The notes: generated from the letters alone by a model not told the origin. A stretch of 64,000 nucleotides of DNA from a virus (IMGVR_UViG_3300001533_000699), one strand, 5' to 3'; positions 684 to 30,667 are shown, counted from the first letter of the stretch. Translations and numbers: made by a program.

Positions 684-1029
684 GGCTCACCTCCAATACG
701 TCGGCACGTTGTTTCTCCCGGCTGGCATCGTCCACGGAAACCATAAGCACGTCGGCCACGTCCTCAACCGGCAGCCGCTTGATGACCGCAAGACGCTTCT
801 GCTCCATCGCCGCTTGCTCTGCTTCGGCAGCTTCCTGGGCGGCTCGCTGTGCCTCCAGAACCGACACCCTGGTAAGCATTGCCTTCTTCGCGTAGGTCTT
901 GTCGGAACAACGATAGGTAATCTCAGTCACGTTGCCATCGTCCCATTCATGTCGTTCGCGCACATCCCGTCCACAGCCCTTTGCTTGAGCAAGGTCTTCA
1001 ACAATATATGATTTGATAATTTTAGCCAT
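676..1029 (-). CDS. Hypothetical protein
   Basis: 117-aa ORF overlapping the next start; GC-richer than the head genes. Confidence 0.6.
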   Translation of the reverse strand: MAKIIKSYIVEDLAQAKGCGRDVRERHEWDDGNVTEITYRCSDKTYAKKAMLTRVSVLEAQRAAQEAAEAEQAAMEQKRLAVIKRLPVEDVADVLMVSVDDASREKQRADVLEVSRG

Positions 1030-14825: not shown

Positions 14826-15047
14826 TAGGCGTCTCACTTATTTTTGACTTCTCTATAGCTGCCGCGCCAGCCGAACTAGGCGGGTCGCCCCTCTCTAGTT
14901 CATCTTCGACTTCCTGGTTGACTTTTGTGTCACCAATCGCGTATAATAAAGAAGGAAGTAGTGGAATTTTCATATTACAGTCCTTTCTATGTGAATGCGT
15001 ATCTGATATAGTATAACCAAAACCACAGTAGTTTGTCAAGGTAAAAA

Positions 15048-15260
15048 ATGCATAATAAAAAACAATGGAATAAAATAGAGGAACAGTTTGTGAAAGATAA
15101 TGCTACGAAATTGACCGATGCGGAAGGAGCAATGCAGCTCAGCCGTATTATCGGTGAATACATAAGTACCCGTAGTTGGAGACGTAAAAGGAACGAGTTG
15201 GGCATCAAAAAACAGAGAGGTAAGGGCTTGTCAAAATTGGGAATGCCCGCTTCTGGTTAG
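15048..15260 (+). CDS. Small HTH/SANT-like protein
   Basis: W...EEQFVKDN...LTD...A..L...RKR..LGIKK pattern. Confidence 0.6.
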   Translation: MHNKKQWNKIEEQFVKDNATKLTDAEGAMQLSRIIGEYISTRSWRRKRNELGIKKQRGKGLSKLGMPASG

Positions 15261-15276
15261 AAAGGTTAGGTAAATA

Positions 15277-15525
15277 ATGAGACAACCACGCTTAATGAAA
15301 CACCCTAATGGTGGCATTTTGAATGTAGATGTTACAATGTTGCAGCTAGGTTTGAGTCAATGTAGGAGTGACGCCGAGAGGGCATTACAGCAGCTAGAAC
15401 ATGGGGTAGAGATAGATGTTGCGGCTGTTCTTACGTCTATCGTAGAGAGAGCGCGCAGCACTATGCATGAGATTCGTGAGTATGAGATGGATGATGAGGT
15501 GAACACTATGTTGGTTAGGGTGTAG
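15277..15525 (+). CDS. Hypothetical protein
   Basis: 82 aa with AGG SD. Confidence 0.5.
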   Translation: MRQPRLMKHPNGGILNVDVTMLQLGLSQCRSDAERALQQLEHGVEIDVAAVLTSIVERARSTMHEIREYEMDDEVNTMLVRV

Positions 15526-15657
15526 CATCTGGAAAATTTTGGGGTTGCTGTGTATATAAGACCGTCGGGTTGAGGGAGGGTACGCCACCCATTGGTATTG
15601 GTTATAATAACCCCCACTATTCCAATAGCGGAACGGCGGAACGGCGGAGCAACAACG

Positions 15658-15797
15658 TGTTGCAATACGCTACAATTGTATCGTTTCGATGCATCGTTTC
15701 GATACACACGTGGAATACCATACTAATGGGGGGTTTGACGTAAGTGCTTGCGCTGCAAGGATTTACGATTTTAGGCCGGTTTGGCACACAACTTGCA
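15658..15797 (+). promoter_or_regulatory. Sigma54 promoter with upstream activator-like and IHF-like sites (copy 1)
   Basis: TGGCAC-ACAAC-TTGCA at 15782-15797; CGTAAGTGCTTG..CAAGGATTTACG at 15739-15767; three 17-bp TGY-N11-RCA boxes at 15658-15706. Confidence 0.8.
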
Positions 15798-15890
15798 TAT
15801 ACTCTTTTCTGGTTTGGCCGCGAACCGCCACCCCAGCGAGGGGTTCTCGTTTGTGGGTTCCGTTCCTATGCGGCATTGGAGCATGTTATC

Positions 15891-16235
15891 ATGGCTACAG
15901 AATCAGCGTTCGGGTTTGTGTACGAATATGGCGTAAACGGAGCATCTGTTGCGTTACGTCTGCTAGTCAAACATACCTCTGTATCAGAGGATACCGCTAG
16001 GGTGATGCGTAGCATTGCCGATGATTTAGGTGAGGTCAATGCTAACAAGGCGGCATGGGCAGATTTAGACTATGTTGGTCGTCTGTTATGCGACATACCG
16101 GGTTATTATCACTTCAGTGATGAGGTTTCCATGGCTTTACGCCAATTGGCGTGTGATATCGACTCGGTAGTGGCAAGCTATATCGGGAAGCGGCGACTGT
16201 CCATAATGGAATACCGTTTGTACGACAAGCGGTAA
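15891..16235 (+). CDS. Hypothetical protein under sigma54 promoter 1
   Basis: ATG 15891 with GGAG SD (MATESAFG). Confidence 0.65.
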   Translation: MATESAFGFVYEYGVNGASVALRLLVKHTSVSEDTARVMRSIADDLGEVNANKAAWADLDYVGRLLCDIPGYYHFSDEVSMALRQLACDIDSVVASYIGKRRLSIMEYRLYDKR

Positions 16236-16459
16236 ACCAGTGGGGAGCCCCCTCCTACGGGAGGGGGCGACCCGGCCCACCCCTTCGGTGAGGGGGTGAG
16301 CCGGGTGCCGACGCCCCACCCCACCCGCAAAGGGGTCCTGCGGATGGCGATAGTCGGAGTGGAGAGTAACTATGTTGAAAGTCGTGAAAGCTTCCCGATG
16401 ATGCAAATGTGTGTCGTGTGGTGAACAGATACGAACAGACGAAAATATCGTCATCGCCG

Positions 16460-17340
16460 GGGGGTTATTTTATACCTAATTGCTATATCAAATATAGTGA
16501 TTATCAGCATGACCCTATATCAATATACGTAGTCAGCGAATAGGGCTAGCGACCCCCAAAATAGTGGAAAAAGAGCCGACTTGTCGGCGCGTAACACCCC
16601 ACGCAGTGGGGTCAATATAGGTAGTCAGTAAAGACCCAAAAGGGTGGGTAAAAATGCGGCAATGCACGCCCCCAAAAGAAGGGCCACCGACGCGGTCACA
16701 ACCCCCTCAGAAGTAGTACCGCCTCCGGTGTAACACCCCACGTAGTGGGGTCAATATGGAGTAGCCAGCAACCCTCGTTAGTGGGGGCTCTAATAGGAAA
16801 AGGTAACACCCCAATCAGGGGGTCGGGCCAACAGCTACATTCTCTATGGCTTTTATGCACATTACCCCCTTACAGATATAGACGCGCCCCCCGTTCGTAG
16901 GGTAACAGCCGAGCCACTCGGCTCGGTCCAATGGGGGGTAGCCAGCACCACTCAGGGGGTACTCATTTTAGGTGGTAAGAAAAAATCAAATAAGGGGGCA
17001 CCGGCGCGGCAGTGCGTACCACCCAAAGGAGGGGCGTCGTGGCGAAATGCCATTGCTGATATGCATTATACCACTTGTGCACATTACCCCTCTACAGGCA
17101 TGGCCGGTACCACCACCCCCTCTATAGATATAGCTGCACCACCTTCTGATAGGGGTCCGACCGGGGGGTAACGCCCGACCCGGTCGGGTCGTCCTAATGG
17201 GGGGTAGCCAGCGGCTCTCTGGTAGGGTGTAAGGAAAAAGCAAAAGAGGGGGTTCTAATGGGGGGTATCACCCCATCCAATGTCGTCGAAATGCCATTGC
17301 TGATATGCATTATACGATTTATGGCTATTGCATACTTATG
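16460..17340. repeat. Non-coding mosaic of short hairpin modules (block 1)
   Basis: GTAACACCCCACGNAGTGGGGTCAATAT at 16591 and 16730; CGAAATGCCATTGCTGATATGCATTAT at 17043 and 17287; 16855-16995 resembles 17078-17247. Confidence 0.8.
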
Positions 17341-17383
17341 GGGGGTGGGGGGTTACCTAACTCAACCGAAGTGGTAGGAAAAG

Positions 17384-17521
17384 TGTTGCAAAATGCTACG
17401 ATTGTATCATTATGCTGCATCGAAACAATACACACCGATTCTCCCACCAATGGGGGGCTTGACGTAAGTGCTTACACTGTAAGGATTTACGATTTTAGGC
17501 CGGTTTGGCACAATAGTTGCA
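17384..17521 (+). promoter_or_regulatory. Sigma54 promoter with activator-like and IHF-like sites (copy 2)
   Basis: TGGCAC-AATAG-TTGCA at 17506-17521; diverged direct repeat of 15658-15797. Confidence 0.8.
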
Positions 17522-17602
17522 TTGTATTGTTGCGAAGCAACGACGCACCCCACCACGCGGGGGGGTCCCGTAATGGGGGGTGCGGAAAACCGGAGAAATG
17601 CT

Positions 17603-18049
17603 ATGACGTTTCAAGACATTGCGGCTGAACTATCCCGCACCTCAGAGCTGGCAATTGCCCTCCATCTGGGGGAAGTCCGCATGACCCTCGATGAGGGGGG
17701 GCAGCCAGTCAAGGTATTCCCCCAACTAGGGGGGGTTATCATGGCGTGTGACGGTACCCTACTAGAGGGGGGGAAGTGGGGTGCTAAGAAAGATGACCCT
17801 AATGAGGGGGTCGCACCCCCAGAAGAGACACCCCTCGACGAGAGGTTGGCATGGCATGCCGAGAGGGTAGCCCGCGAGGGGGAAGACACCCCCCCGTTCC
17901 ACAAGCCCCTCGTGCAGGGGTACGTCCCCCTAGAAAGTCGGTCATGCACGAAAACCTCCCCTTGCGAGGTATGCAAGGCTCACGGGGGCAAGAAGCCCCC
18001 CGTAATGAGTAAGAAACAATGGAACGACCATATGAAAACTATCCGATAG
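17603..18049 (+). CDS. Hypothetical protein with C-terminal Cys cluster, under sigma54 promoter 2
   Basis: ATG 17603 with GGAG SD; CTKTSPCEVC. Confidence 0.65.
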   Translation: MTFQDIAAELSRTSELAIALHLGEVRMTLDEGGQPVKVFPQLGGVIMACDGTLLEGGKWGAKKDDPNEGVAPPEETPLDERLAWHAERVAREGEDTPPFHKPLVQGYVPLESRSCTKTSPCEVCKAHGGKKPPVMSKKQWNDHMKTIR

Positions 18050-18154
18050 GGTAGTGGGGTGCCCCCCTCCTACGGGAGGGGGGTCGCCCGGCCCGCCCCC
18101 TCTTCGGAGGGGTCGAGTCGGACGATTCGGAACCCCCTGAATGGAGACAAAAGG

Positions 18155-18325
18155 ATGCCCGATGGAAGTAGACGCAAACGACGGCAAGGACACACCCCCC
18201 GAGCGAGGTACTACTCCCTCTATAGAAGCATACGGTTCGCCCGTAGGTTCGGGGGGGTAGAAGTTAACCTGTTGTACGTACTCAAAAGGAGGGGTGTAAA
18301 TACCCCCCAGAAGGAGGCCCACTGA
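18155..18325 (+). CDS. Small basic hypothetical protein
   Basis: GGAG SD before ATG 18155; stop overlaps the next start. Confidence 0.45.
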   Translation: MPDGSRRKRRQGHTPRARYYSLYRSIRFARRFGGVEVNLLYVLKRRGVNTPQKEAH

Positions 18326-18612
18326 TGAGTCACTATATCCCCCAAAAGCACCCCCTCCGTAATGCTGTTGCGTCTCTCTCCAGCGAGGGGGTCGGAACAT
18401 ACTACAGCCAACTCCACTATTGGTGGGGTAGGGTCCAGCACACCCTGAAAGAGGGGGGCTTCCCCCTAGAACGGAGGGAAGATGACCCCCCAATTGTGTA
18501 TGGGGTGGAAGGTAGATGGATACTACCGCTGGGGGGCACGAATACCCGTCTGTGTGTCTACGTATATCGAATGCCAAGCGGCAACTATGAAGTGGTAAAC
18601 TACCTAACATAG
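18325..18612 (+). CDS. Hypothetical protein
   Basis: GGAGG SD; ends YRMPSGNYEVVNYLT. Confidence 0.7.
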   Translation: MSHYIPQKHPLRNAVASLSSEGVGTYYSQLHYWWGRVQHTLKEGGFPLERREDDPPIVYGVEGRWILPLGGTNTRLCVYVYRMPSGNYEVVNYLT

Positions 18613-19117
18613 GGGGTAGCAACCAGCCACTAGAGGGGCTTCCTGTGGGGGTGGTAACACCCCACACAGCCCCCTCGACGGAGGGGTATGCTCTTAATGT
18701 GCACAATTCCTATAGGGATTATCACGCATAAAAACCATCGGAAATAAGCAGGGAAGCCTCCCCTGCTAATAGGGGGCCAAACACCACCCGAACACATACG
18801 TCAGGTGGTAACGCACCACCCAAAGGAGGGGGGTCGCGGCGAAACCCTATTGCTGATATGCACTATGCGGCATGTGGCTATTTGTCTTATTGCTATGATT
18901 TCTATGGGGGTTATGTTGTACCACCCAAAGGAGGGGTGTGAAAAAGATAGTAAATAGCTAGCAAATCTGGGAGTTAGAACGTACCACCCAAAGGAGGGGC
19001 GTTAATTCCTATTGCTGATATGCATTATGGCCGTTGTGCGCATTTCCCCCCTTTTGGTACTTTAGAAAAAATCTCTGGGGGGGTTGTAATCCGCAAAACT
19101 TATGGTATAATGTCGGT

Positions 19118-19211
19118 ATATGATACAGGCTATCTATACATTGAACGGTACCCTACCCCTGCGGGGGTGGCACATACCCCGTTGCTGGACCCCCCGGCAG
19201 CGGGGTTTTTT
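19118..19211 (+). ncRNA. Candidate ~95-nt sRNA
   Basis: Sigma70-type promoter near 19085-19111, three hairpins, ends in ACCCCGTTGCTGG/CCGGCAGCGGGGT plus T run; no ORF. Confidence 0.5.
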
Positions 19212-19585
19212 GGGAGGTAAACATGCATAAATAAAATAGGGATTATGACAATTTAAACCACACCGGGGAGGGGTACGACCCTCACCCTGGGGGATAGTCT
19301 GCACATACCGCGTACCATGTAAGCGTAGCGTAACACCCCACGTAGTGGGGTCAATATGGGGTAGCCAGTAACACCCAAAGGAGGGGTGTCGCCGCGAAAT
19401 GCCATAGGTGATATGCATTATATTCTTTGTGGCAATTACCATACTAATGGGGTGCAAGGAAAATCCATTTGGGGTACCACCAATGGTATGTAAGGAAAAA
19501 GCATCAGGACTACTTACAATGGGGGTGCGTACCACCCTAAGTAGTGGTGTCGCGAAATGCCAGTTTGTCTATGCGAATTAGACAC

Positions 19586-19601
19586 TGCAAATCTTGTGCC
19601 A
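19586..19601 (-). promoter_or_regulatory. Sigma54 -24/-12 site, leftward
   Basis: Reverse complement TGGCAC-AAGAT-TTGCA. Confidence 0.75.
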
Positions 19602-19649
19602 AAGCGTATCGAGACACCACACTAATGGGGGTTTGAAAAAAACATTAGG

Positions 19650-19796
19650 GGGGTTGTGGTTCTAAAATAGTGTGTTATACTATAGACAGTAAGGGGGGAA
19701 TAACAAACAACGAAAACGAAAGTGAGGAAAACCAAAAAGGGGGTTGCAAAACCAAAAACATGTGATAGAATAAGTTTAAGTGAGACACACACACCA
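19650..19796 (+). promoter_or_regulatory. Tandem sigma70-type promoter cassette (repeat of 20725-20878)
   Basis: TTGTGG-N16-TATACT then TTGCAA-N16-TAGAAT; ~115 bp nearly identical to 20751-20878. Confidence 0.8.
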
Positions 19797-19809
19797 CGAG
19801 GAATCAGAA

Positions 19810-20061
19810 ATGGTAACGTATCATTATGTACATCTACGTCAAGATGACGATTCAGAAACACGTTACATAGTCGAGGTCGAGCACACCCCCGCATTGGGTG
19901 GTATCGACCTGACAATTCAGGCATGTCAAGCCATAGCGTCTGTTAGGCTAGATGAAAACGGCGTAGAGGTATTCGACTACCTACACGAAGACATGCTTCT
20001 GGACACCCAACCGGGGGGTGAGGACGAAGAACGAATCCTGGTTGCGTGCGGATTGAGGTAG
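19810..20061 (+). CDS. Acidic hypothetical protein
   Basis: GAGGA SD, ATG 19810. Confidence 0.65.
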   Translation: MVTYHYVHLRQDDDSETRYIVEVEHTPALGGIDLTIQACQAIASVRLDENGVEVFDYLHEDMLLDTQPGGEDEERILVACGLR

Positions 20062-20153
20062 TAGTCACAGTGGGGGGAGGTATGCGACCCAAACACCGGG
20101 GGTGCTCCCCCCTATTTTGAGGAAAACTGAAACACACACTAAGGAGATGGATT

Positions 20154-20492
20154 ATGTCATGTTTGGCATGCGGCAGTAGACTGTTTGAACACAACGAAAA
20201 CATCGTGTGCGAGGGGTGTGGAGAATCCCTCGACAGGGGGGAGATGGAAAAGCCGATAGTGAACATGCCAATTCTGGCATATCATATACACGAACTAGCA
20301 ACAGCCAGGGGGGAATTCACCCTCCACCCCTGCGAGGGGGTATCGGTGGTGGTAAACGTAATTCCCTCCACCTGGGAGGGGGTCTGGGACACTATGTATC
20401 TAAACGGCAAAAATTGCGGAAATAGAGCGGGTGCCATCGGGGCATTCGTTAAAATGGTTGGCGAAGCCAACCCACAGGTATCATGGAAATAA
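20154..20492 (+). CDS. Zn-ribbon hypothetical protein
   Basis: AAGGAG SD; CxxC...CxxC. Confidence 0.7.
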   Translation: MSCLACGSRLFEHNENIVCEGCGESLDRGEMEKPIVNMPILAYHIHELATARGEFTLHPCEGVSVVVNVIPSTWEGVWDTMYLNGKNCGNRAGAIGAFVKMVGEANPQVSWK

Positions 20493-20691
20493 GTGGTGTG
20501 TGACACCCCCCGGTCAAGGTACGCTCTTGGCCGGGGGGTAACCCCCCATCCAGCCCCCTCTGGGGAGGGGTGGGGTATCGGCATAAAAGCCATAAAATCT
20601 ATAGGGTTTCATCTAAACCAACACCGTCAAAATCCATAGGTGATATGCACTATGGCAATTAAAAGCGTAGTAACTCTATCGGTGATAACAG

Positions 20692-20707
20692 AGCAAATAT
20701 CATGCCA
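20692..20707 (-). promoter_or_regulatory. Sigma54 -24/-12 site, leftward
   Basis: Reverse complement TGGCAT-GATAT-TTGCT. Confidence 0.7.
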
Positions 20708-20893
20708 AAATAAAATAAAATTAGGGGGTTGCAATTCTCAAAACCTATGCTATACTATAGACAGTGAGGGGGAAACAACAACAACAACAACAACGAAAAC
20801 GAAAGTGAGGAAAACCAAAAGGGGGGTTGCAAAACCAAAAACATGTGATAGAATAAGTTTAAGTGAGACACACACACCAACACGGAGTCAAAC

Positions 20894-21637
20894 ATGTTTT
20901 CGCCAAAAAATGCTAAAACAAAAGCGTTACGTCAAGTGTTCGGCAACAAAAGAGTCTACTCTTTGGACCTGCCTGCTGGACATACGTGCCCTGGGGCAAA
21001 AGACTGCAAGAGTCAGGCAGTTGTCAACGCCGATGGAAAATGCAAGATTGTCGATGGACCGGATTGCATCTTCAGATGCTTCGCAGCGTCTCAAGAGGCA
21101 CTATACCCCCAAACGTGGGCAAAGCGACAACGAAACCTAAAGCTGGTCAAGGGGTGCAGTACCCCCCAACAGGTGTGCGAATTGTTGTGTAACCACCTTC
21201 CAGACAATGCGGGAATAATCCGATTGCATGTATCCGGTGATTTCTACAGTAAAACCTACCTTCGGGGAGCCATGATGGCAGCACAACGTACCCCCAACAT
21301 CAGGTGGTACGCATACACGAAGAGTCTCCACCTGTTTAGTGGAGTGCCGATGCAAGACCCCCAAAACGGGGTGGTATTCAACAATTTCATTCTGACAGCC
21401 AGTGTGGGTGGTAAGCACGACCACCTGATTGAAAACCTCGGATTACGTACCGCTGAAGTGGTATTTAGCGAAGAAGAGGCAAAACAGAAGGGGTTGGAAA
21501 TAGACCATACGGACGAACACGCCGCACAACCAGGGGGGTCCTTCGCCCTGCTGATTCATGGTACCCAACCGGCGGGGTCCGAAGCTGGCAAGGCATGGTA
21601 TAAAATCCGCAAAGCCAAAGGGGGTTATAGTCGATAG
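20894..21637 (+). CDS. GP88-like Fe-S/radical-SAM-like protein
   Basis: LPAGHTCPGA..C, C.F.CFA, RLHVSGDFYS and YAYTK motifs. Confidence 0.7.
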   Translation: MFSPKNAKTKALRQVFGNKRVYSLDLPAGHTCPGAKDCKSQAVVNADGKCKIVDGPDCIFRCFAASQEALYPQTWAKRQRNLKLVKGCSTPQQVCELLCNHLPDNAGIIRLHVSGDFYSKTYLRGAMMAAQRTPNIRWYAYTKSLHLFSGVPMQDPQNGVVFNNFILTASVGGKHDHLIENLGLRTAEVVFSEEEAKQKGLEIDHTDEHAAQPGGSFALLIHGTQPAGSEAGKAWYKIRKAKGGYSR

Positions 21638-21775
21638 TGTGTGTGTCCCCCCCCACCAGGGTTCCCTCCCCTGGTGGGGGTTGGGGGAAAACCAAAAGAG
21701 GGGTTGTAAACAGAAAACATTGTGCTACAATACAAGAGTCAAGTATTCACCACCATCTTTCAGGGAGTTTGAACC

Positions 21776-22252
21776 ATGCGTGTTTTCACCCGTTCAGAGT
21801 TTGCCGAATTCGTTGCCAATATCAAGGGTTCGGTCATTATGTCGTTGACCATCAAGACCGATGCCCCTACGAAGAGGGGTGCCCCGGCCATCTTCAAAAT
21901 CAAGCATTGCCCTGCTGGGTTGGGTTGGAACTATGCCAAGCGGAAAGCCGCTGCTGAAGGGGTGCCAGTCGAACAGCTCGCCCCCTCCAATGGGTCATGG
22001 CACACCCTCGTGCAAGGGGCGCTGCGTCGGCATCGTGACGATGCGTCTCGACTGTATGTCGAATACTACCCCTCCGATAAGGGTGCGAAGACCCAGTACG
22101 AGATGGATGGTCGAACCTACTCGTATAATGAGGTTGCCGAGCACCTCAAAGCCCCCCGCAAGGGTGGTGACAACAACACGGGCTATCGTATGGCCAAGCT
22201 TGAAAACGTTGTTGGGGGTGTTCTGAACAAAGAGCCATTCGTGGTGGTATGA
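21776..22252 (+). CDS. Hypothetical protein
   Basis: GGAG SD; own promoter at 21704. Confidence 0.7.
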   Translation: MRVFTRSEFAEFVANIKGSVIMSLTIKTDAPTKRGAPAIFKIKHCPAGLGWNYAKRKAAAEGVPVEQLAPSNGSWHTLVQGALRRHRDDASRLYVEYYPSDKGAKTQYEMDGRTYSYNEVAEHLKAPRKGGDNNTGYRMAKLENVVGGVLNKEPFVVV

Positions 22253-22394
22253 TGGACCCTAGTAAGAGGGGTGTCCGGTAACAACGGGCACCCCTCTGAC
22301 GGGGATTTAACAAAAACCACAATAGGGGTTGCATTACACAAAAAACGTTGTACAATAAGAGTAGTTCATCACCACTTACTTAAGGAGTACAAGT

Positions 22395-22604
22395 ATGTAC
22401 GCAAGCATCAATTTCCGAACTAAGAAAGCTTTCCGTGAGGCTGTCAAGGCCGGTAAAGAAGTCTCCGTGTCGCAACCCGGCCCGTTTGGCGGCAACGAAC
22501 CGAGCAACGGAAGAGTGGCGGTTGAGGGGCCATGGTATCCCGAACCGCACAGGTGGTATGCCACTGCTACCCTCAAAGATGGGGTGGTGGTAAAGGTAGC
22601 ATGA
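22395..22604 (+). CDS. Hypothetical protein
   Basis: AAGGAG SD; own promoter at 22329. Confidence 0.75.
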   Translation: MYASINFRTKKAFREAVKAGKEVSVSQPGPFGGNEPSNGRVAVEGPWYPEPHRWYATATLKDGVVVKVA

Positions 22605-22881
22605 GGTGGTGACACACCCCCCGGCCAGAGTACCTCCCTGGCCGGGGGGTCACACCCCATCCGACCCCCTCGCGTGGGGGTATGCGCTGAACAGCCACAA
22701 AACCTATGGCAGATAAGCAGGGAAGCCTGTCCTGCTAATTTCTATAGGAATTCTAGCTTTTGAATAGCCACAACCCCCATGGTAATTCCAGCCCATCCTA
22801 CCATTTGACTCCCACATTTAGGGGTTAGTTAGTACTATGTTGGGGGGGGTAAAGATGTAGTAATTCTATTGGTTATTGTTG

Positions 22882-22897
22882 AGCAAATATTATGCCA
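22882..22897 (-). promoter_or_regulatory. Sigma54 -24/-12 site, leftward
   Basis: Reverse complement TGGCAT-AATAT-TTGCT. Confidence 0.7.
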
Positions 22898-23035
22898 AAG
22901 AATAATAAAATAAAGGGGTTGTAATTCTCAAAACTTGTGGTATGATATAGGTAGTGAAGGGGAAAGGGCAACAACGAAGAAAACCAAAAGAGGGGTTGTA
23001 ATTCTCAAGACTTGTGATAGAATACAGTTACCGAT

Positions 23036-23173
23036 GTGGGGGCCTTGGTGGGGCCAAGACGCCTAATGAAGAAGCGTCTTTGAGTACATAACAGAAACTG
23101 ACCGTGCTGTAATGTGCTGTGGTCATTGCTGGTCACAATGGCTTGCTAGGGGTTTGATTCCCCTCCCCCCTCC
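23036..23173 (+). ncRNA. tRNA-like structured RNA (T-arm and acceptor, enlarged interior)
   Basis: Starts just after the promoter at 22996-23023; 5' GGGGG pairs with 3' CCCCC; AGGGG-TTTGATT-CCCCT T-arm; internal hairpins. Confidence 0.45.
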
Positions 23174-23367
23174 TTTTACTGTACTGTGTTTATCAAAAGA
23201 GGGGTTGTAAAGTCAGAAAACCGTAGTACAATACAAGAGGGAGTAAGTTACAATGCAATGCCCGGTCTGCCAACACGAGATGAAATCCATCTGCAACCCC
23301 GTAACGGGAGTGTGGTATTGGGCTTGCGATGCGTGTCAAAGTTACATCAATAAAACGGAGAAATAAA

Positions 23368-23574
23368 ATGCGTAAGCGAGAAGTCACGTGCGTAGTGTGC
23401 AAGGAAACCGTCAGCCGACGTAAGTCGCTTGCTGTAGAGTTCGAACAGCGTGCGTGTCGAAAGCACCCAGGAACATCTGCTGCGTCAGCAGAGTTCGATA
23501 TTAAGCGGCGTGCCGCTCTCGATGCCGATAGAGACAGTAAGAAGCTGGAGTCTTCGACCCGCTCTCTTAAGTAA
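23368..23574 (+). CDS. Zn-finger hypothetical protein
   Basis: GGAG SD; CVVC...CRKH. Confidence 0.6.
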   Translation: MRKREVTCVVCKETVSRRKSLAVEFEQRACRKHPGTSAASAEFDIKRRAALDADRDSKKLESSTRSLK

Positions 23575-23939
23575 GGGGTTCGGCCCATATTTGGGGTTGC
23601 ATTACAACAAACATGTGATAAAATACAGTTAATGAAGCAAGAGATTTGGTTACAACAGCTAGTGTTCAAGTCAATATTACAGGGGGAAAGTGACAAACGC
23701 AAAACCTGTGGTATACTTAGGTTAGTCCAACATCACACACACAAGGGAGAAAAATGTTCAAGTACAATGCAAAACCCAACGGTTTGGAAGTGTCCATCCA
23801 TACACAAAGCATGGGCAAGCACTTTGAAATGAAGTCTGATGGGTCCATGAAAAAATAAAAATGAGGGGTTGCAAACGGCAAAAGTTATGATAGAATACTT
23901 GTAGTGAAGTGGATACGACACAACGCAAAGGAACACACA

Positions 23940-24182
23940 ATGTTACACATTCGACTGGTTGGTTTTTATGACGCCTCGGCCCTATTCGAGGGGTTCAGCG
24001 ACCTGTGGCAACAATTCATCGAAAGCGACCCCTCATTTTCGTGGGGGTCCAACAATCACTCACTTATAACAGTACGCGACGTTCTAAACCACATGGACAA
24101 TGTAGGAATTGAGTATGACAAAGCATTTGTAGACAAATGTGGTCTGATTGACGAACACTTCTACGTTGACCTAGAGAACTAA
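23940..24182 (+). CDS. Acidic hypothetical protein (paralog of 24687-24926)
   Basis: Shares F.WG.NNH.L and YVDLEN* with the paralog. Confidence 0.75.
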   Translation: MLHIRLVGFYDASALFEGFSDLWQQFIESDPSFSWGSNNHSLITVRDVLNHMDNVGIEYDKAFVDKCGLIDEHFYVDLEN

Positions 24183-24335
24183 GAGGGGGGGGGTAACGGG
24201 CTAACCCCCCGAGTGGGGGAGGTCTTTTCTTGAGTCATTAGCCAGTATTTCTATGGCAGATATGCATTTTATGGCAATGTACCACCCGAATAGGTGGGGT
24301 TGGCCCACCCATTTGAGGTGTCAGTAGACAGTACC

Positions 24336-24542
24336 TTACCAGTTTTCCAGCTCGTATTCTCGAAACACGTAATGCCGCAATTCTGGGGGGTTGCCAGCAC
24401 CCCCGTCCGACACTAACACATCCACTAGCGGTTGCCCGTTTTCATCAAAACGGTTCTTTTCCACGATGCCGGATTGCTGCGTAAGACGCACGGCGACTCG
24501 CTGGTTCACTCGAAATCGGAAATCAGGTGTTGTTGCTTTCAT
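24336..24542 (-). CDS. Small SH3-like hypothetical protein, inverted, with its own promoter
   Basis: F.VNQRV......GIV...V.V......F.E.EL pattern; minus-strand TTGCGT-N16-TACAAT just upstream. Confidence 0.5.
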   Translation of the reverse strand: MKATTPDFRFRVNQRVAVRLTQQSGIVEKNRFDENGQPLVDVLVSDGGAGNPPELRHYVFREYELENW

Positions 24543-24686
24543 ACGTGTATTGTAGCATAGATTATTGGAAACGCAACCCCCTCTTTTGGTAAGATAAGAA
24601 AAGTAAATGGAAGGGATTGCACTTGTCAAAAACTGTGATAGAATACGGGCATGGAACAAAACACCACACTCAACGGACACAAGACC

Positions 24687-24926
24687 ATGTCGAACATTTC
24701 AGTATGTAAATGTGAGTTTGTCAAATCTTCCGAACTGTTTGATGGTTATGAAGACCTCATGGAAGAATGGAGCACAGTATCACAATTCAACTGGGGGGAA
24801 AATAACCACCACACCTTGGTACTGTTCGCGTCCATTTTAGATGAAATGGAGTATTACGGCGTGGAGTTTTCGCATCAGTTTTCTTCGCGGGTGCCGTTTA
24901 ATATGTATGTTGACCTCGAAAACTAG
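24687..24926 (+). CDS. Acidic hypothetical protein (paralog of 23940-24182)
   Basis: Shares motifs with 23940-24182. Confidence 0.75.
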   Translation: MSNISVCKCEFVKSSELFDGYEDLMEEWSTVSQFNWGENNHHTLVLFASILDEMEYYGVEFSHQFSSRVPFNMYVDLEN

Positions 24927-25001
24927 GGGGTTGACTTCCACAAATCATGTGCTATAATGCAATTACTTAACAACCACCAACCACTTTCTTGAGGAAACGA
25001 A

Positions 25002-25304
25002 ATGAAGAGTATCGCAACGTATCGTGTCAATGACGTAATTAGTCTACAATACGGCAACCGTGTCAACGAACGCATATGTAGAGTGTTGAAGGTGCGAAAT
25101 CTCAACAAAGAACCCCTGTCTATCAAGACGCTGATTCGTCACCCCAACACCATACGCAGCAACGTACTGGTCACCTATAAGGACACAGAAGGCAAAATCC
25201 GTTCGTTTTATACGGGTGTCGAAAAGTCGGCACGTAAGGTCAACCCTTTGCGGGTAGCAATCCTATGTCTTCGCGGCAAGCTTCCCTGCCGTGTGTGGAG
25301 GTAA
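25002..25304 (+). CDS. Basic hypothetical protein
   Basis: GAGGA SD; promoter at 24931. Confidence 0.65.
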   Translation: MKSIATYRVNDVISLQYGNRVNERICRVLKVRNLNKEPLSIKTLIRHPNTIRSNVLVTYKDTEGKIRSFYTGVEKSARKVNPLRVAILCLRGKLPCRVWR

Positions 25305-25305
25305 A

Positions 25306-25542
25306 ATGAAGTACGAAGTTATGCACGGTGGCAGCACTGCATTTGTGCAAGCCGGTAACCCGTATGCGGCATGCTTAGAAATGCTGTACACAGAAGCAGA
25401 CGAAAACGATATCGAGTTCGCACCATTCGAGGTTACACCCCTCCCATATGGAGAGTCTGAGACAATCCCAATGGCGCTTGTGGTGGCGATACAAAACCAA
25501 GCATTGAACGGCGACCCCGACCACTTTTTAGAAAGGCAATAG
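25306..25542 (+). CDS. Hypothetical protein
   Basis: GGAGGT SD. Confidence 0.6.
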   Translation: MKYEVMHGGSTAFVQAGNPYAACLEMLYTEADENDIEFAPFEVTPLPYGESETIPMALVVAIQNQALNGDPDHFLERQ

Positions 25543-25789
25543 TATGCATCTACTCGCAATCGGTTCCACAATCAACCACAATGGCGTACCCATGAAGGTA
25601 GAGTCTGTGGTCACAATCAAACACCAGCCAATGGTGCAGGTACGCACCTCTCACAATACGACCATGTTGTTGTCGCATAAGCAGGTCGAAAAATCCCTGA
25701 ATAGGGGTTGACAACACCGAAAGGTGTGATACAATGTTTTTGTGTAACACTTACTCTTTTGGAGAGGCGCTTGTAGAAATACTGCGTCA

Positions 25790-26233
25790 ATGAAAATGTA
25801 TCGATGTGAACAGTGTGGGGTGCAGGTCGGACGCAAGGTATCGGCTATGAGGACAGTAGTCGAAACTCGCGAAAAGACGTATACAAAAACGCACGAGCTA
25901 GAAAACGGAGAGCAATACGAGCAGTACGACGGGGATGGAACCGAAATTGTGCGAGAAGTCAAGCTCTGTCACAAGTGTTATGGCGTCGAGGTGCCCGAAG
26001 CACCAAAACCTGAATACCATACACCGGCAGAACCATTGCCAACAGGAAAGTACTCACTGAAACTCGGCAGCGGCCATGAAGTTACCACAGACAACCCCTC
26101 GGAACTGTGGTGGTTCTACGAAAGCGATGGTGCGAGCATTCTACCCGCAAAACGTAAGAAAGGCGGCAAGTCCAAGGGTGCCCGTACCAAAGGCCGCAAG
26201 AACGTCAAGAAAACTTCAGAAGAACGGAGTTGA
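25790..26233 (+). CDS. Zn-ribbon protein with basic tail
   Basis: CEQC...G.EIVREVKLCHKC; Lys/Arg-rich C-terminus. Confidence 0.65.
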   Translation: MKMYRCEQCGVQVGRKVSAMRTVVETREKTYTKTHELENGEQYEQYDGDGTEIVREVKLCHKCYGVEVPEAPKPEYHTPAEPLPTGKYSLKLGSGHEVTTDNPSELWWFYESDGASILPAKRKKGGKSKGARTKGRKNVKKTSEERS

Positions 26234-26327
26234 CTTTTGCGAAAGTTGTGATACACTAGAAGTAATGAGGCAAGAGTGTAACGTGCCTCTGAGGGTCACC
26301 CGTCCCAAGAATAGCAAACGGGCATAT

Positions 26328-26401
26328 AGGGGAGTGGAGCAGTTGGTCAGCTCACAAGTTTCATAAGCTTGAGGTCGCAGGTTCAAATCCTGCCTTCCCC
26401 A
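26328..26401 (+). tRNA. tRNA-Met(CAT)
   Basis: Cloverleaf with CAAGT-TTCATAA-GCTTG; A1:C72 mismatch is initiator-like but the three G:C anticodon-stem pairs are absent. Confidence 0.85.
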
Positions 26402-26669
26402 CTGTCTAGACCGTCTTTCATGGTTTCCAATCATCAAGACGTAAAAACTGATGTATGGGGTAGACTTTGGTTTCTCAATTCCTTTCAACCTCAGAAACGG
26501 AAGTGATGTAGACCTTGGTTGTCGGTAACTTTCAACATAGAAATCGGAACCGTCTGGTTGGCGTGCCAATAAAACGCTGGGTGGCGGATAAAGTGATTTG
26601 TGCCTTGAAGGTTCCATGGGTCACCATACCATGAGTTCCGCCCGAATTTTATTAGTCAATCTTACGAGT

Positions 26670-26705
26670 GCCCGTAAGTCGATGCGTCGGCTTGCGGGTT
26701 TTTTT
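26670..26705 (+). terminator. Intrinsic terminator
   Basis: GCCCGTAAGTCGA-TGCG-TCGGCTTGCGGGT plus T run. Confidence 0.8.
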
Positions 26706-26815
26706 GTTGTTCCACCGTAACCCCCCACATCGGGTGAGATGGACGTAGCCAGTAAATATACCACCCAAACGGGGGTTGTGAAAAAACACATAGACGCTAG
26801 CTGTTATATCATAAC

Positions 26816-26831
26816 TGCAAATACCATACCA
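26816..26831 (-). promoter_or_regulatory. Sigma54-like -24/-12 site, leftward
   Basis: Reverse complement TGGTAT-GGTAT-TTGCA. Confidence 0.55.
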
Positions 26832-26947
26832 ACAAAATGAGAAAATAAGTGGTTGCAATAAGCAAAAGGTGTGGTATGATGTGTGTAGGTAAGAAACACT
26901 AACACAAACAAATGCCCTGTTGACATTTACAAAAGGTGTGGTAAGAT

Positions 26948-27436
26948 ATGGTTATGAACAGCAACGTACACATGACAGCAATTGCTCGCAAAACACCTTC
27001 GGCACCATGCCGATGGCTATATGAGCAGGGAAGGTGTGTTGGGCGAGTGCTCGACTGGGGTTGCGGAAAAGGTGTAGACGCCGCCTTTCTAGGGGCATAT
27101 GCCTACGACCCATATTTTCAGCCCGTAACGCCCTGTGTCAACCTACGCTATGACACCATCCTCTGCACGTATGTGTTAAATGTGATACCTGAATACTACG
27201 ACCGTTGCGTTGTGGTCGAAGAGGCACTAGAGTATTTGGCTGAGGGTGGATGGTTGTATGTGTCTATTCGGAATGACCGTAAAAGCTTAAAAGGATGGAC
27301 GAAAACGGGCACGTGGCAGGGTTATGTCGAAGACCAATTGAGGGTCGGTGGATTCACCATGATTCACCGTACATCTAATTATGAAATTTGGGGATGGCAG
27401 TTGACTTCCACAAATAATGTGATACAATGCAAGTAG
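26948..27436 (+). CDS. Class I SAM methyltransferase
   Basis: TAIAR..PS.P, VLDWGCGKG, YDPYF, YVLNVI and GTWQ motifs. Confidence 0.8.
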   Translation: MVMNSNVHMTAIARKTPSAPCRWLYEQGRCVGRVLDWGCGKGVDAAFLGAYAYDPYFQPVTPCVNLRYDTILCTYVLNVIPEYYDRCVVVEEALEYLAEGGWLYVSIRNDRKSLKGWTKTGTWQGYVEDQLRVGGFTMIHRTSNYEIWGWQLTSTNNVIQCK

Positions 27437-27537
27437 TCAAACCTTCAACTGAAGATAACGGTGCTTGACATTTTGAAAAGTTGTTGTATAATTACAAGAG
27501 TAAAGCGTTTCACTACTTTTAACAAGGGAGTTTGATT

Positions 27538-28821
27538 ATGATGAACGAGCAGCAAGGCCAGTCGATTGCACGCGAGGGGCAAGGCAGCTACAGCGGAGAC
27601 GTTATCTTGGAAAACCTAGAAATGGGCACCAAGCAAGGGTTCAATCACGTAGCTAAGTATTGGCTCGAAAACGGTTGTATGTCGTTCGATGAAGCCATTC
27701 AACAGCTTAGCAACGAACAGCAACAGATTCAAGACTTCCATGAGCCGCTGGAAGCATGGGACGTAGTCGTTGTGAACAACGGCGTGGCTTTCCGGCGTAG
27801 GGCCGATGGTAGGGACTACATCCCCACAGACCATGCGTTGAATCTCATGTGTCAGGTTGGGCGTGGTTTGTCATCTTGGACCGTCCGCAATCTTCGCGAC
27901 CCAATTCCGCACGCTACCAAAAAGGACGATGATGGTACCCCGTTGACGCTGAAGGGTGGAGAGCGTACCCAAGCCGATTATCAGGTACTCAGGGACTACA
28001 TTGCCCTGCATCTGTTCAACCCAGACCGTGTAAACCAACAAAAAACACGACTGTTCCGCACATGGAACGATGGCACCTTACGTGCTCTGTTGAGCGAACA
28101 ATACAGCATCGTCAACAATGCGTGGTTCCTTGATGTTCTGTCGAAGGCAATTCCAGGGGGTGTGGTGTCTCACTGGAAAGGTGATGCCGACAGCATCTAC
28201 GGAAACATTTTGATTCCAGACACAATCCGTAAAGAAAATGACTCCGACTTTGGGGGTATGCTATCTGTCGGCAACAGCGAAATTGGTACACGACGCATTT
28301 CATCCTGCCCATCGGTGTTCCGTGCGATTTGCATGAACGGCTGTATCTGGAATCAGGAAATGGGCAAGGCACTTAGTAAGGTGCATCGTGGCAAGTTGGA
28401 CTTCAGCCAATTGGCTGCGATGATTACAGAAAACCTGGAAGCACAGATTCCAATGCTTCCGCAAGGCATCGAACGCGTACTTGGATTGCGTGCATTCGGG
28501 TGCGGGGAAACACCAACTATAAACCTGTTGGCACAAACCGCAATCGACTACAACCTATCTAAGCGGCAAACACAAGCGGTGTTTGATGGGTGGTTGGAAG
28601 AGAACAATATTCTTGGTCTGAAGGAAAGCAGGACAGCGTTCGGTTTGACCGCTGCAATCACGCGTGCCGGTCAATATTTTGACAACGAAACCTGGGTACG
28701 TTTTGACGGTATCGCAGGTGAGTTTGCGAACTACAACCGCAACGCATGGGACCAATTCCGTAACCGTGCCGAGAATCTGACCGTCAAACAAGTAGAGAAG
28801 CGTATGATGTTATCTGTGTAA
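27538..28821 (+). CDS. DUF932-family protein
   Basis: RALLSEQY..VNN, NSEIG and FRAICMNG motifs. Confidence 0.75.
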   Translation: MMNEQQGQSIAREGQGSYSGDVILENLEMGTKQGFNHVAKYWLENGCMSFDEAIQQLSNEQQQIQDFHEPLEAWDVVVVNNGVAFRRRADGRDYIPTDHALNLMCQVGRGLSSWTVRNLRDPIPHATKKDDDGTPLTLKGGERTQADYQVLRDYIALHLFNPDRVNQQKTRLFRTWNDGTLRALLSEQYSIVNNAWFLDVLSKAIPGGVVSHWKGDADSIYGNILIPDTIRKENDSDFGGMLSVGNSEIGTRRISSCPSVFRAICMNGCIWNQEMGKALSKVHRGKLDFSQLAAMITENLEAQIPMLPQGIERVLGLRAFGCGETPTINLLAQTAIDYNLSKRQTQAVFDGWLEENNILGLKESRTAFGLTAAITRAGQYFDNETWVRFDGIAGEFANYNRNAWDQFRNRAENLTVKQVEKRMMLSV

Positions 28822-28902
28822 ATACAAGATTGGCATCCGACTGAGCCACTTGGTTCAGTCGGATGCTATGAGTTTTCAATTCACTAACAGAAAGGAAAAG
28901 AG

Positions 28903-29451
28903 ATGTCAATCAAAAAACTAACAGACGCACAAGTTGGGCAACGCATCAGTTTTATGTATTTGGGCGGTACAAACCCAGGTGCAGTCAGGCATGTAGAGGT
29001 AGTAGAAGTACTTGGTGACCGCATTGTGGGAGTAGACCTAGATAAAGACGCGCTGCGTGTGTTTATGGTAGACAAGGCGGTGATGATTGAGGTATTGCCC
29101 GACAAGCCCGCGGTAGCTCCACGCAAGCTATTCACCAAAGAGCAGGCTCGCGAAATGGTGCGGACTTACATCGACTCGTTGAACGGTCCAGAACTTGCCA
29201 ACGTGTTGGGCGCATGCCATGATTGCGTTGATGCCACATATGACGAATCTGGTAACATTACTGTGCAATACCAGAAACCCGGTATCCAACACGAAGAGTT
29301 GGGCTTCACCGTGTTCAACGACGATGGCGAAGGATTGTATATCTGCAAAGCAGAAGACGACGAACAGCTATTGGTCAACGACAAAGCAATCAGCGACCCG
29401 TATGTCCTTGCCCACAAATTATGCACGCATTTGGGTTTGACAATCGAATAA
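28903..29451 (+). CDS. WYL-like domain protein
   Basis: N-terminal F.Y.GG..PG..R.VE......G.D......R.F..DK pattern. Confidence 0.55.
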   Translation: MSIKKLTDAQVGQRISFMYLGGTNPGAVRHVEVVEVLGDRIVGVDLDKDALRVFMVDKAVMIEVLPDKPAVAPRKLFTKEQAREMVRTYIDSLNGPELANVLGACHDCVDATYDESGNITVQYQKPGIQHEELGFTVFNDDGEGLYICKAEDDEQLLVNDKAISDPYVLAHKLCTHLGLTIE

Positions 29452-29517
29452 CCTGTGGTAAAATACAGGTACTGAACGAGTTTCACTTTCACTTTCATTT
29501 TCAAAAGGAGTTTTTCA

Positions 29518-29850
29518 ATGGCACGAGCAACGTTCACCGACAAACAGCTTTGTCTTGCATGGGCGGCGGCATTTAAGAGCACCCCCAAGGGTACGCGAGG
29601 CGATGTGGTACGAGCTTTGATGGCAGAAGTCGGCATCGAAGACAATGCGGACAACTACCGCAAGATGTACAACAACGTCACTCAGCGACACAAGCAGTTG
29701 AGCACCCATCCGACCAATCCGGTCAAGTTTCTGCCTCTTGCCCCTGGGTTGAAGGGTGCCCGTCGTACAGCGGAAGCCATGCAGTCTCTGCAAGATATCT
29801 TTGCGGAAACCGATGACGATGACGATGACGCTGGTTCCGGATGTGGTTGA
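29518..29850 (+). CDS. Hypothetical protein with acidic tail
   Basis: AAGGAG SD; promoter at 29437. Confidence 0.7.
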   Translation: MARATFTDKQLCLAWAAAFKSTPKGTRGDVVRALMAEVGIEDNADNYRKMYNNVTQRHKQLSTHPTNPVKFLPLAPGLKGARRTAEAMQSLQDIFAETDDDDDDAGSGCG

Positions 29851-29973
29851 GGTGCTTATCCTAATTACAATCATCCTCTGTATTGTGGATGTCGTAACCG
29901 ACAAGTAATTCCCTTCCTCTGGAGCCCTCGACCGCTATTGGTCGGGGGCTCCACAAACAAACCTGGAACAGTG

Positions 29974-30222
29974 ATGAATAAAACTGTACTTGGTGCTCCT
30001 AATCCTGGCACCCACGACGTTGGGGAAGAAATTTGTTGTGGTGTATGTGGTACTGCTATGAAAGTTGTTCGTAACGTATTGGGGCCTCGTGGGTTCGCCC
30101 AGGCAATGGCTGGAGGTAAGAGCCTGCACGATGCTTACTATTGCCCGAACAGAGGTGAGAGTTGGCATAAACAGCTTATCGCTTTTCGACAAGAAGCAGC
30201 CTTGGTCGGGCGGCGAAATTAG
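29974..30222 (+). CDS. Zn-binding hypothetical protein
   Basis: CGVCG...HD.Y.CP...WH; followed by a terminator at 30256-30282. Confidence 0.55.
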   Translation: MNKTVLGAPNPGTHDVGEEICCGVCGTAMKVVRNVLGPRGFAQAMAGGKSLHDAYYCPNRGESWHKQLIAFRQEAALVGRRN

Positions 30223-30449
30223 TAAAAGCATAAGCACGAGTAGAAACAAAACAGTAAGCCCCGAACACATCGGGGCTTTTTTAGTCACACTCCATCCGAC
30301 CCCCTCGGTTGGGGTATGCGCCAAACTGCTATAAAATCTATGGCAATTAGATTGGTACGCTCTATCTGGCGTGGTGAAACGGGTCTACGCTAATCGATAG
30401 TCAACAAAACGAGATTGACTTTACCCCCCTTCTAGTGTATAATACTGTT

Positions 30450-30576
30450 AGTCCCGTCGAGTAGCCCAACCCAGGCTGGGGCAATTCTGAAGGAAAGCGA
30501 AGGTGGAACTAAAAAGGGTGAGGTATGGTCTGCCTACCTGAAACGACTAACCCCGACATGTTCGGGGTTTCTTTTT
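30450..30576 (+). ncRNA. Candidate ~125-nt structured RNA
   Basis: TTGACT-N17-TATAAT at 30415-30443; ends in the AACCCCGA/TCGGGGTT terminator; internal hairpins. Confidence 0.55.
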
Positions 30577-30667
30577 AGACACACCTAAAGTGGTCTGGTT
30601 GTCTGGCTAATGTCTGTAGCTAGCAAAATCAAAAAGAATAGAATAAGCAGGGAAGCCCCCCCCTTAC

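Follow-up and report, generated by a model that had tools for sequence, protein, structure and literature searches.

The run-rich domain

We have analysed a stretch of 64,000 nucleotides from the genome of an uncultured large ("giant") phage (IMGVR_UViG_3300001533_000699), the whole of which is referred to here as the window. It carries an array of transfer RNA (tRNA) genes and a transfer-messenger RNA (tmRNA), and it encodes both a homolog of rIIA and a Ro60-like RNA-binding protein. The late module (1-14.8 kb) is read leftward and includes a capsid-like gene, the portal and a 1487-aa terminase/helicase-like gene; at about 15 kb both the gene orientation and the GC skew flip, with the late genes to the left of the flip. 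To the right lies a plus-strand block (15.5-30.6 kb) that appears to be expressed early. The subject of this work is a domain of G-runs and C-runs (15540..24400) that occupies both strands in the left part of this block, with 22 runs of at least 4 nt per kb, a GC content of 0.51 and about 45% coding DNA by conservative gene calls. The elevation of GC and of third-position GC (GC3) reaches to about 30.6 kb, but only the left half is run-rich.

This compositional domain is real, conserved and statistically strong. The density of runs of at least 4 nt is 20-32 per kb over 16-24.5 kb, as against 0-3 per kb in most of the remaining window. For 15540-24330, expectations were drawn from composition shuffles and from a first-order Markov model: 196 runs of at least 4 nt were observed where these gave 55.7+/-7.2 and 117+/-10, respectively, and for runs of at least 5 nt the figures were 109 against 14.7+/-4.4 and 40.4+/-5.2. 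The longer runs are depleted in the flanking late region (2 observed, 10.0 expected) and in the right arm (12 versus 19.5). The adjacent 24.5-31 kb, which has a similar GC content (0.47) and is run-poor, served as an internal control; there the runs of at least 5 nt are about as numerous as expected (12 versus 7.3). The excess over the composition shuffles means that the bias survives correction for GC, and a pure GC effect is ruled out by the shuffles, the Markov models and this control together. The sequence-only reading of this DNA, which had first remarked on the dense tracts within coding as well as non-coding DNA, was therefore correct in its central observation. It had also named homopolymer sequencing error as a possible refutation. 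An artefact of sequencing or assembly is, however, excluded, since the reading frames are intact and align over their full length with orthologues, the hairpin arms are exactly complementary and the pattern recurs in more than 10 independent assemblies.

The runs have a characteristic spelling. The nucleotide that follows a G-run is T in 72% of cases on the plus strand and 64% on the minus strand, against a T background of 22%, so the run word is GGGGGT/ACCCCC. On the non-template strand of the domain the G-runs outnumber the C-runs by 127 to 72. The longest tracts (G9, G8, C8 and C8, at 24185, 22842, 21647 and 30656) are all intergenic, and their length is one that permits replication slippage.

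Two suggestions of the sequence-only reading about the function of the runs found no support. The first was that they lower the number of restriction target sites; the observed/expected ratio of 6-bp palindromes is 0.58 in the domain versus 0.56, 0.55 and 0.63 elsewhere, and that of 4-bp palindromes is 0.79 versus 0.71-0.83. Palindrome avoidance is thus a genome-wide property, to which the runs add nothing, and a restriction-site avoidance peculiar to the domain can be discarded. The 6-bp palindromes present number 28-42 of the 64 kinds, depending on the region. The second was a G-quadruplex domain: on neither strand is there a single canonical motif (four tracts of at least three G with loops of 1-7 nt), whereas the run density would lead one to expect 3.0+/-1.7 under a second-order Markov model. 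A protein-coated domain, also suggested there, is a conceivable state of this DNA.

Organization of the block

Rightward transcription starts at a sigma70-like promoter found in a promoter scan (14918-14947, plus strand). It is followed by two small conserved plus-strand genes of ordinary composition just to the left of the domain boundary (15048-15260 and 15277-15525; GC3 0.44, GGG 1 of 11 Gly codons), with homologs in the related contigs L002-L007 and L011. The domain opens with a first sigma54-type unit (15658..16298, plus strand), which comprises an upstream repeat (family D18), a TGGCAC-N5-TTGCA site at 15782-15797, a gene at 15891-16235 and paired plus-strand stem-loops at 16247-16268, with a C(UACG)G loop, and at 16278-16298. 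Beyond it is a non-coding stretch (16300..17400) of shuffled hairpin modules from repeat families D6, D7, D17 and D20, namely ACCCCAC-GNA-GTGGGGT, AATGGGGGGTAGCCAGC, CCACCCAAAGGAGGGG and TGATATGCA. A second sigma54-type unit (17446..18112, plus strand) has its site at 17506-17521, a non-conserved gene at 17603-18049 with the highest run density of all (GGG for 11 of 14 Gly, CCC for 8 of 13 Pro) and plus-strand stem-loops at 18062-18083 (UACG loop) and 18097-18112 (UUCG loop). Then come two small plus-strand genes (18155-18325 and 18325-18612) with tblastn matches in L002, L085 and L087, and a second stretch of non-coding modules (18620..19601) in which the word AAGCAGGGAAG occurs once (18746) and a sigma54-type site is on the minus strand (19586-19601). 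The perfect TGGCAC-N5-TTGCA motif occurs exactly three times in the 64 kb, at these three places in the left part of the domain; both plus-strand sites lie 90-110 nt upstream of genes, at the end of a 77-nt repeat whose copies are 90% identical.

The shuffled non-coding modules between and after the sigma54-type units total about 2 kb. The module stretch has neither a conserved open reading frame (ORF) nor a match in Rfam, and the domain contains no known RNA family besides tRNAs. The module that contains TGATATGCA is present in six copies (17045-20677), and on the minus strand it reads (T/C)ATAATGCAT, which resembles a -10 element and may be a sign of leftward promoters within this non-coding DNA. 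The dispersed word AAGCAGGGAAG has 9 exact copies genome-wide (at 18746, 22715, 30645, 31083 and five further places) where 0.01 would be expected, and the two copies within the domain each sit in a small hairpin.

With so much non-coding DNA (about 55% of the domain), one might think of a replication function: the 16.3-19.6 kb stretch, or the whole G-clustered and highly transcribed zone, could act as an origin for the phage, possibly with priming by R-loops that the G-clusters of the non-template strand stabilise, on which G-runs do exceed C-runs as given above. Origins that rely on R-loops at G-runs are known from ColE1, T4 and mitochondria, and the cumulative GC-skew minimum of the window is at about 15 kb. 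That minimum, however, coincides with the switch in gene orientation, the GC skew of the domain is no higher than that of the right arm, and in one relative (G001) it is the C-runs that are in excess on the corresponding strand. As for the generic signatures of an origin, matches to the DnaA box are at chance level (9 versus 10.9 expected) and no iteron arrays were found, which leaves room only for an origin of a phage-specific kind. On these grounds we regard an origin as very unlikely.

From 19079 to 24646 the plus strand carries an array of 13 repeated promoters, recognized by the promoter scan and as repeat families D1-D5. Their common form is an A-rich tract, (A/G)GGGGTTG(C/T)AA, N, and TGTG-ATAnAAT (an extended -10); the A/T-rich tract upstream of the -35 is of the GAAAACCAAAAG type in families D2 and D3, and in most of the promoters GGGG lies immediately upstream of the -35. 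The block as a whole has about 20 near-consensus predicted sigma70 promoters, made up of an 18-copy family and further sites, all of them on the plus strand and each with an A-rich tract upstream, and canonical TTGAC(A/T) promoters continue beyond the run-rich part to 29.4 kb. Interspersed with the array are nine small plus-strand gene cassettes whose starts are linked to good Shine-Dalgarno sequences (19810-20061, 20154-20492, 20894-21637, 21776-22252, 22395-22604, 23253-23366, 23368-23574, 23754-23858 and 23940-24182). Some of them are conserved in relatives, and the product of 20894-21637 matches Pfam GP88 (E=5.5e-33). Stem-loops that pair a C-run with a G-run stand at the ends of the units on the plus strand, at 20098-20112, 20506-20570, 21650-21680 (12 bp), 22616-22681 (13 bp and a second one) and 24187-24219.

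The run-poor half of the block (24600..30600, plus strand; GC3 0.55) has the canonical TTGAC(A/T) promoters and conserved plus-strand genes at 25002-25304, 25306-25542, 25847-26233, 28903-29451 and 29518-29850, along with a tRNA-Met (26328-26402), a methyltransferase (26948-27436, plus strand) and a DUF932-like protein (27538-28821, plus strand), both conserved as well. The latter assignment comes from an atlas feature score of 0.96, with 27 of the 30 matches in that set, while its Pfam match (E=0.032) falls below the cut-off; it is the best-conserved protein of the early block, 80% identical in G001. The GP88 match, the methyltransferase domain and the DUF932-like protein are the only functions recognized among the early-block proteins.

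As to the phage itself, the window has no nucleotide match in the phage collection, nor does its portal have a tblastn match there; judged by the portal sequence, this is not a T4-type phage. A host lookup by way of a sugar dehydratase/epimerase gene was uninformative, the matches being at most 51% identical and spread over all phyla. The 1487-aa protein of the late module (7252-11715, minus strand) adjoins the portal. Its PHROG matches are to families of helicases, endonucleases and large terminases, and the gene appears to be a terminase-like fusion of unusual size. Finally, positions 1-1029 have a GC content of 0.52, with an ORF (676-1029, minus strand) of GC3 0.59; a further GC-rich patch may lie at this left end of the window.

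Synonymous sites, relatives and stem-loops

The genes outside the block (late module and right arm) have a GC3 of 0.33; GGG accounts for 11-12% of their Gly codons and CCC for 4-5% of their Pro codons, with GGT and GGC together making up 64-67% of Gly and CCA 50-56% of Pro. In the run-rich domain the GC3 is about 0.57, and GGG rises to 41% of Gly and CCC to 48% of Pro, so the altered Gly and Pro codon choice claimed in the sequence-only reading holds good. The genes of the control part (25-30 kb) have a GC3 of 0.55, with GGG at 14% and CCC at 31%. Given the GC3 values of the two halves, it is the whole 15.8-30 kb block that is GC3-rich, and the left half alone that is run-rich. The main codon shift in the block is from NNT to NNC, and both of these codons are read by the same tRNAs. 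The tRNA-Gly(GCC) and tRNA-Pro(UGG) of the phage read the codons favoured outside the domain, not GGG or CCC. A division in which the late-preferred codons are read by the phage tRNAs and the early-preferred ones are not applies to Gly and Pro, partly to Ile, and not to Leu or Val.

Codon usage alone does not account for the coding runs. In shuffles of synonymous codons that hold fixed each protein and the codon usage of each gene, the domain genes have 66 coding runs where 47.8+/-3.3 are expected, and the conserved domain genes taken alone have 35 against 23.0+/-2.4. The control genes are at expectation (17 versus 18.0), whereas the late genes show avoidance (15 versus 24.9+/-3.6). In three relatives the equivalent genes give 108 versus 79.4, 41 versus 32.8 and 56 versus 33.9, with the late genes neutral, so a pure codon-usage effect is ruled out both here and there. 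The runs start in all three codon phases. The earlier proposal was right in that this is a functionally distinct domain and that a pressure at the nucleotide level overrides codon choice; the interpretation put forward with it is, as a whole, partly supported.

The relatives were anchored by the portal and by one conserved protein of the early block. A GC-elevated, run-rich block is found at the same place in G001/L002, G002/L005, G003/L013, L003, L006, L057, L099 and L183-L188; in the more distant L093, L095 and L097 it is not clearly seen. Searches of the phage collection, of IMG/VR and of metagenome contigs gave no close relative that covers the domain, and among the relatives that do cover it none exceeds about 83% protein identity. 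The lineages that share the block have portals only 48-67% identical and backgrounds of 30-50% GC, over which the block stands 8-15 points higher; in four lineages with late-gene GC3 from 0.13 to 0.40, the early-block genes are 0.2-0.35 above that. The heptamer GGGGGGT is among the most domain-specific in the window, G001 and G002 (34 inside versus 0 outside, 19 versus 1 and 13 versus 0), and GGGGTTT is the top one in G003. The promoter and module spellings of the window are absent from the domains of the relatives, which carry dense promoter sets of their own; the run words alone are shared.

Gene content in the domain turns over between relatives. Only 5 of its 13 genes have homologs in the relatives, and the gene order is permuted. 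The GP88 gene, which lies inside the run-rich zone in the window (20894-21637), is beside the methyltransferase and DUF932-like pair in G001 (G001:C1:47426-48193) and G002 (G002:C1:122226-122963), and the number of runs in it tracks its surroundings: 12 and 14 in the two run-rich contexts and 4 in the run-poor context of G002. When these orthologues are aligned, runs occupy 52 columns in one sequence only and 11 columns in more than one. Similarly, L183 and L184 are about 71% identical in their conserved genes, but the 8 kb upstream cannot be aligned. Since gene content and sequence turn over while the composition persists, the composition must be maintained and renewed, which argues against a one-off acquisition. 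L183 and L184 also share a 249-nt island (L183:7058-7305, L184:7167-7415) that is 89% identical, in a place where they are otherwise about 71% identical or cannot be aligned. It follows a tRNA-like 3' end, and one of its hairpins shows compensatory changes. Rfam has no match to it and the window lacks a counterpart; it may be a structured RNA.

These comparisons bear directly on two of the alternatives. A foreign island from a GC-richer donor, or a passive regional bias of mutation or repair (for example, GC-biased gene conversion in a recombination hot spot), would fit the distinct composition with its sharp left boundary and the hyperplastic gene content, and the repeated modules would favour recombination. 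Yet the block keeps the same position and the same offset across lineages as divergent in portal sequence and background GC as those above, its runs form stems and are placed in ways that codon usage does not account for, and GC bias alone yields no runs, as the GC-matched, run-poor control at 24.5-31 kb makes plain; we therefore hold this explanation to be highly improbable. Better placed, though in our opinion still unlikely, is the idea that the block is, or lies within, a long terminal repeat at the end of the genome that enters first, with that end at about 15.5 kb, where the sequence-only reading had placed a candidate physical terminus, and the composition as an adaptation to entry (evasion of defences, or control of ejection or packaging). 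The early genes of T5 and SPO1 are well known to lie in long terminal repeats, the early-type block here abuts the late module, and five contigs of relatives (L003, L004, L006, L183 and L184) end in the domain or at its edge. Such contig breaks would be equally expected from internal repeats, strain variation or coverage bias at GC-rich and homopolymer sequence. Moreover, the two ordinary plus-strand genes at 15048-15525 separate the strand switch from the domain boundary, and palindromes are avoided no more strongly than in other regions. Three relative contigs of 125-162 kb, classed as linear without end repeats, have the equivalent domain in their interior, although this is weak evidence against a terminus because the ends of assemblies are arbitrary. 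A terminal location would be partly compatible with the interpretation that we favour below.

A second property of the domain is its wealth of stem-loops. It contains 45 perfect GC hairpins, whereas simulated sequences from Markov models of order 1-5 have 9-15, and in four phages the density of such hairpins within the block is 10-18 times that in the remaining sequence (6.0 versus 0.5, 3.9 versus 0.6, 1.6 versus 0.1 and 1.8 versus 0.1 per kb). In the run-rich part, 8 of the 13 gene ends have a C-run/G-run stem-loop 5-41 nt past the stop codon. Only three of the gene ends in this part (21637, 22252 and 23574) have a promoter within 80 nt with a stem-loop ahead of it, after the stop codon; the remaining stem-loops are 160-700 nt upstream of the next promoter. 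When the four phages are pooled, loops of the UNCG, GNRA and GNA types occur 16 times on the coding strand, versus 3 times for their reverse complements (P=0.004). Hairpins are also in excess within the coding sequences of the domain (43 against 18.2+/-3.7 in the synonymous shuffles), and the folding energy of these sequences is low (z=-4.5).

The runs might instead be a signal in duplex DNA. On this explanation, GGGGGT/ACCCCC would attract a protein of the phage or the host, or the G:C tracts would keep off nucleoid or silencing proteins that seek AT-rich DNA, so that the early promoters of an AT-rich genome fire at once, and the hairpins would be a by-product. The flanks of the runs are indeed word-like and symmetric on both strands, GGGGGGT and GGGGTTT head the domain-specific heptamers across the phages, GGGG abuts the -35 on its upstream side in most of the promoters, the folding scores are strand-symmetric, and the GC of the domain equals the background of each lineage plus about 10 points. 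In addition, G002 and G003 have an excess of coding runs without a significant excess of hairpins. Several facts pull the other way: the loop sequences have the strand bias just mentioned, the runs cluster in stems right after stop codons, the run-poor half has equally strong promoters, and no candidate binding protein was found. Taken together, a duplex-DNA signal seems rather improbable to us.

Interpretation and comparison with known systems

On balance we favour, by a little over even chances, the view that the domain is the variable half of an early block, a PeSL-like array of cassettes (after the promoter-early stem-loop elements of T4-type phages compared below) that is transcribed by the host RNA polymerase. 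Its stem-loops would act as terminators or insulators for transcription that starts at very strong promoters, and would shield the 3' ends of the RNAs, while stems within genes might keep transcripts compact and so longer-lived, or harder to reach. The repeated modules, promoters and hairpins alike, could supply the homology for cassette shuffling, as in the T4-type PeSL. The raised GC3, which is mainly the change from NNT to NNC, would suit the tRNA pool of the host before the phage tRNAs, for A/T-ending codons, accumulate. Synonymous sites within genes also go into forming runs and run-on-run stems, and the pattern is best read as selection at the nucleotide level for the stems, and perhaps for the runs as such, even within genes.

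A number of observations weigh against this view. What marks the block as early is the kind of promoter it has, its position and the kind of genes. No more than about a quarter of the runs (48 of 199) are inside perfect stems, and most of the stem-loops lack a U-tail. The folding excess is equal on both strands, with no strand asymmetry of folding energy in the domain, and it is just as strong in the run-poor half; G.U mismatches in helices number 3 versus 6 for A.C, which, in so few cases, lends no support to RNA as the folded molecule. Coding hairpins are clearly in excess in the window and G001, but their surplus falls short of significance in G002 and G003, where the runs are nonetheless in excess, and thus the runs may be the primary target. 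The PeSL analogy, too, fails to explain the composition, because nothing comparable is seen in the T4-type phage RB49: its ORFan-rich PeSL regions have 36-41% GC over a 40% background, a GC3 of 0.39 against 0.34-0.37, 0.9 coding runs per kb and a total of 2-5 runs per kb, with polyG/polyC confined to the intergenic stems.

The cassette-array interpretation does not by itself predict a preference for homopolymer runs over other GC-rich pairing, nor a run excess that persists where the hairpin excess is weak. A more radical interpretation would be that a block of 9-16 kb, kept by a clade of uncultured giant phages, is under region-limited selection for GGGGGT/ACCCCC that reaches the synonymous sites and is renewed independently in each lineage. 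The runs themselves would then be the target, rather than a by-product of terminators: a dedicated factor might dock at them, or be excluded by them, and in this way mark, shield or time the DNA or RNA of the block. We give this perhaps one chance in several.

Whatever the mechanism, the genome is split into two nucleotide dialects that follow an apparent expression programme and not ancestry: one 9-kb stretch forms runs and run-on-run stems through its coding synonymous sites, and the late genes avoid them. Should the runs make early transcripts more stable, insulate or conceal them, or serve to label early DNA, they would add a layer to phage gene control, one that composition-based tools would misread as foreign DNA or assembly error. 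The signature could also serve to locate the early anti-host block in uncultured phages of this clade, the likeliest site of new host-takeover and anti-defence genes.

A literature search found no published run-rich early domain, but several known systems share some of its features. The terminal redundancy of SPO1 and the first-step-transfer region of T5 place early or pre-early host-takeover genes in long terminal repeats at the end that enters first. Like the block, they have many strong host-type promoters, short units, small genes that are of unknown function or directed at the host, and abundant repeats; unlike them, the block gives no sign of a terminal or repeated state. We know of no report of a G/C-run composition in the T5 or SPO1 modules. 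Tuerk et al. (1988) reportedly described hyperstable C(UUCG)G hairpins between T4 genes, and the domain similarly has UNCG-loop hairpins closed by C-G after its genes, on the coding strand. Unlike those of T4, however, few of the hairpins in the domain have such loops, and their stems are homopolymer-based and extend into coding DNA.

With respect to codon choice, early and late phage genes are known to differ in their synonymous codons, a difference in which GC content and the supply of tRNAs play a part (Mioduser, Goz and Tuller 2017, PMC5683454). The early-type and late genes of the window likewise use different synonymous codons. The shift here is nevertheless very large (GC3 about 0.56 versus 0.33), confined sharply to one region and retained in lineages that differ in GC, and in one half of the block it is driven by nucleotide context (runs and stems) and not by codon identity.

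The closest resemblance is to the PeSL elements of T4-type phages (RB49/phi1, PST and nt-1), which stand upstream of ORFans in hyperplastic regions, have been shown both to terminate and to promote transcription, and take part in modular shuffling (Arbiol et al. 2010, PMC2839356; Comeau et al. 2014, PMC4122927). Both systems combine repeated strong sigma70 promoters that have an A/T-rich upstream tract with stable polyG/polyC stem-loops and small ORFan genes; both are sited in the most plastic part of the genome, and in both the spelling of the motifs is lineage-specific. In contrast to PeSL, the stems of the domain seem to lie mostly just past stop codons, outside the promoters; non-coding modules take up about half of the domain, sigma54-type sites are present, and its coding sequences are shifted, with a GC3 0.2 higher and with runs about 10-fold more frequent and in excess of the synonymous shuffles. 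The region-wide shift, the effect on coding sequence and the large stretches of non-coding modules lie outside the PeSL picture as it has been described.

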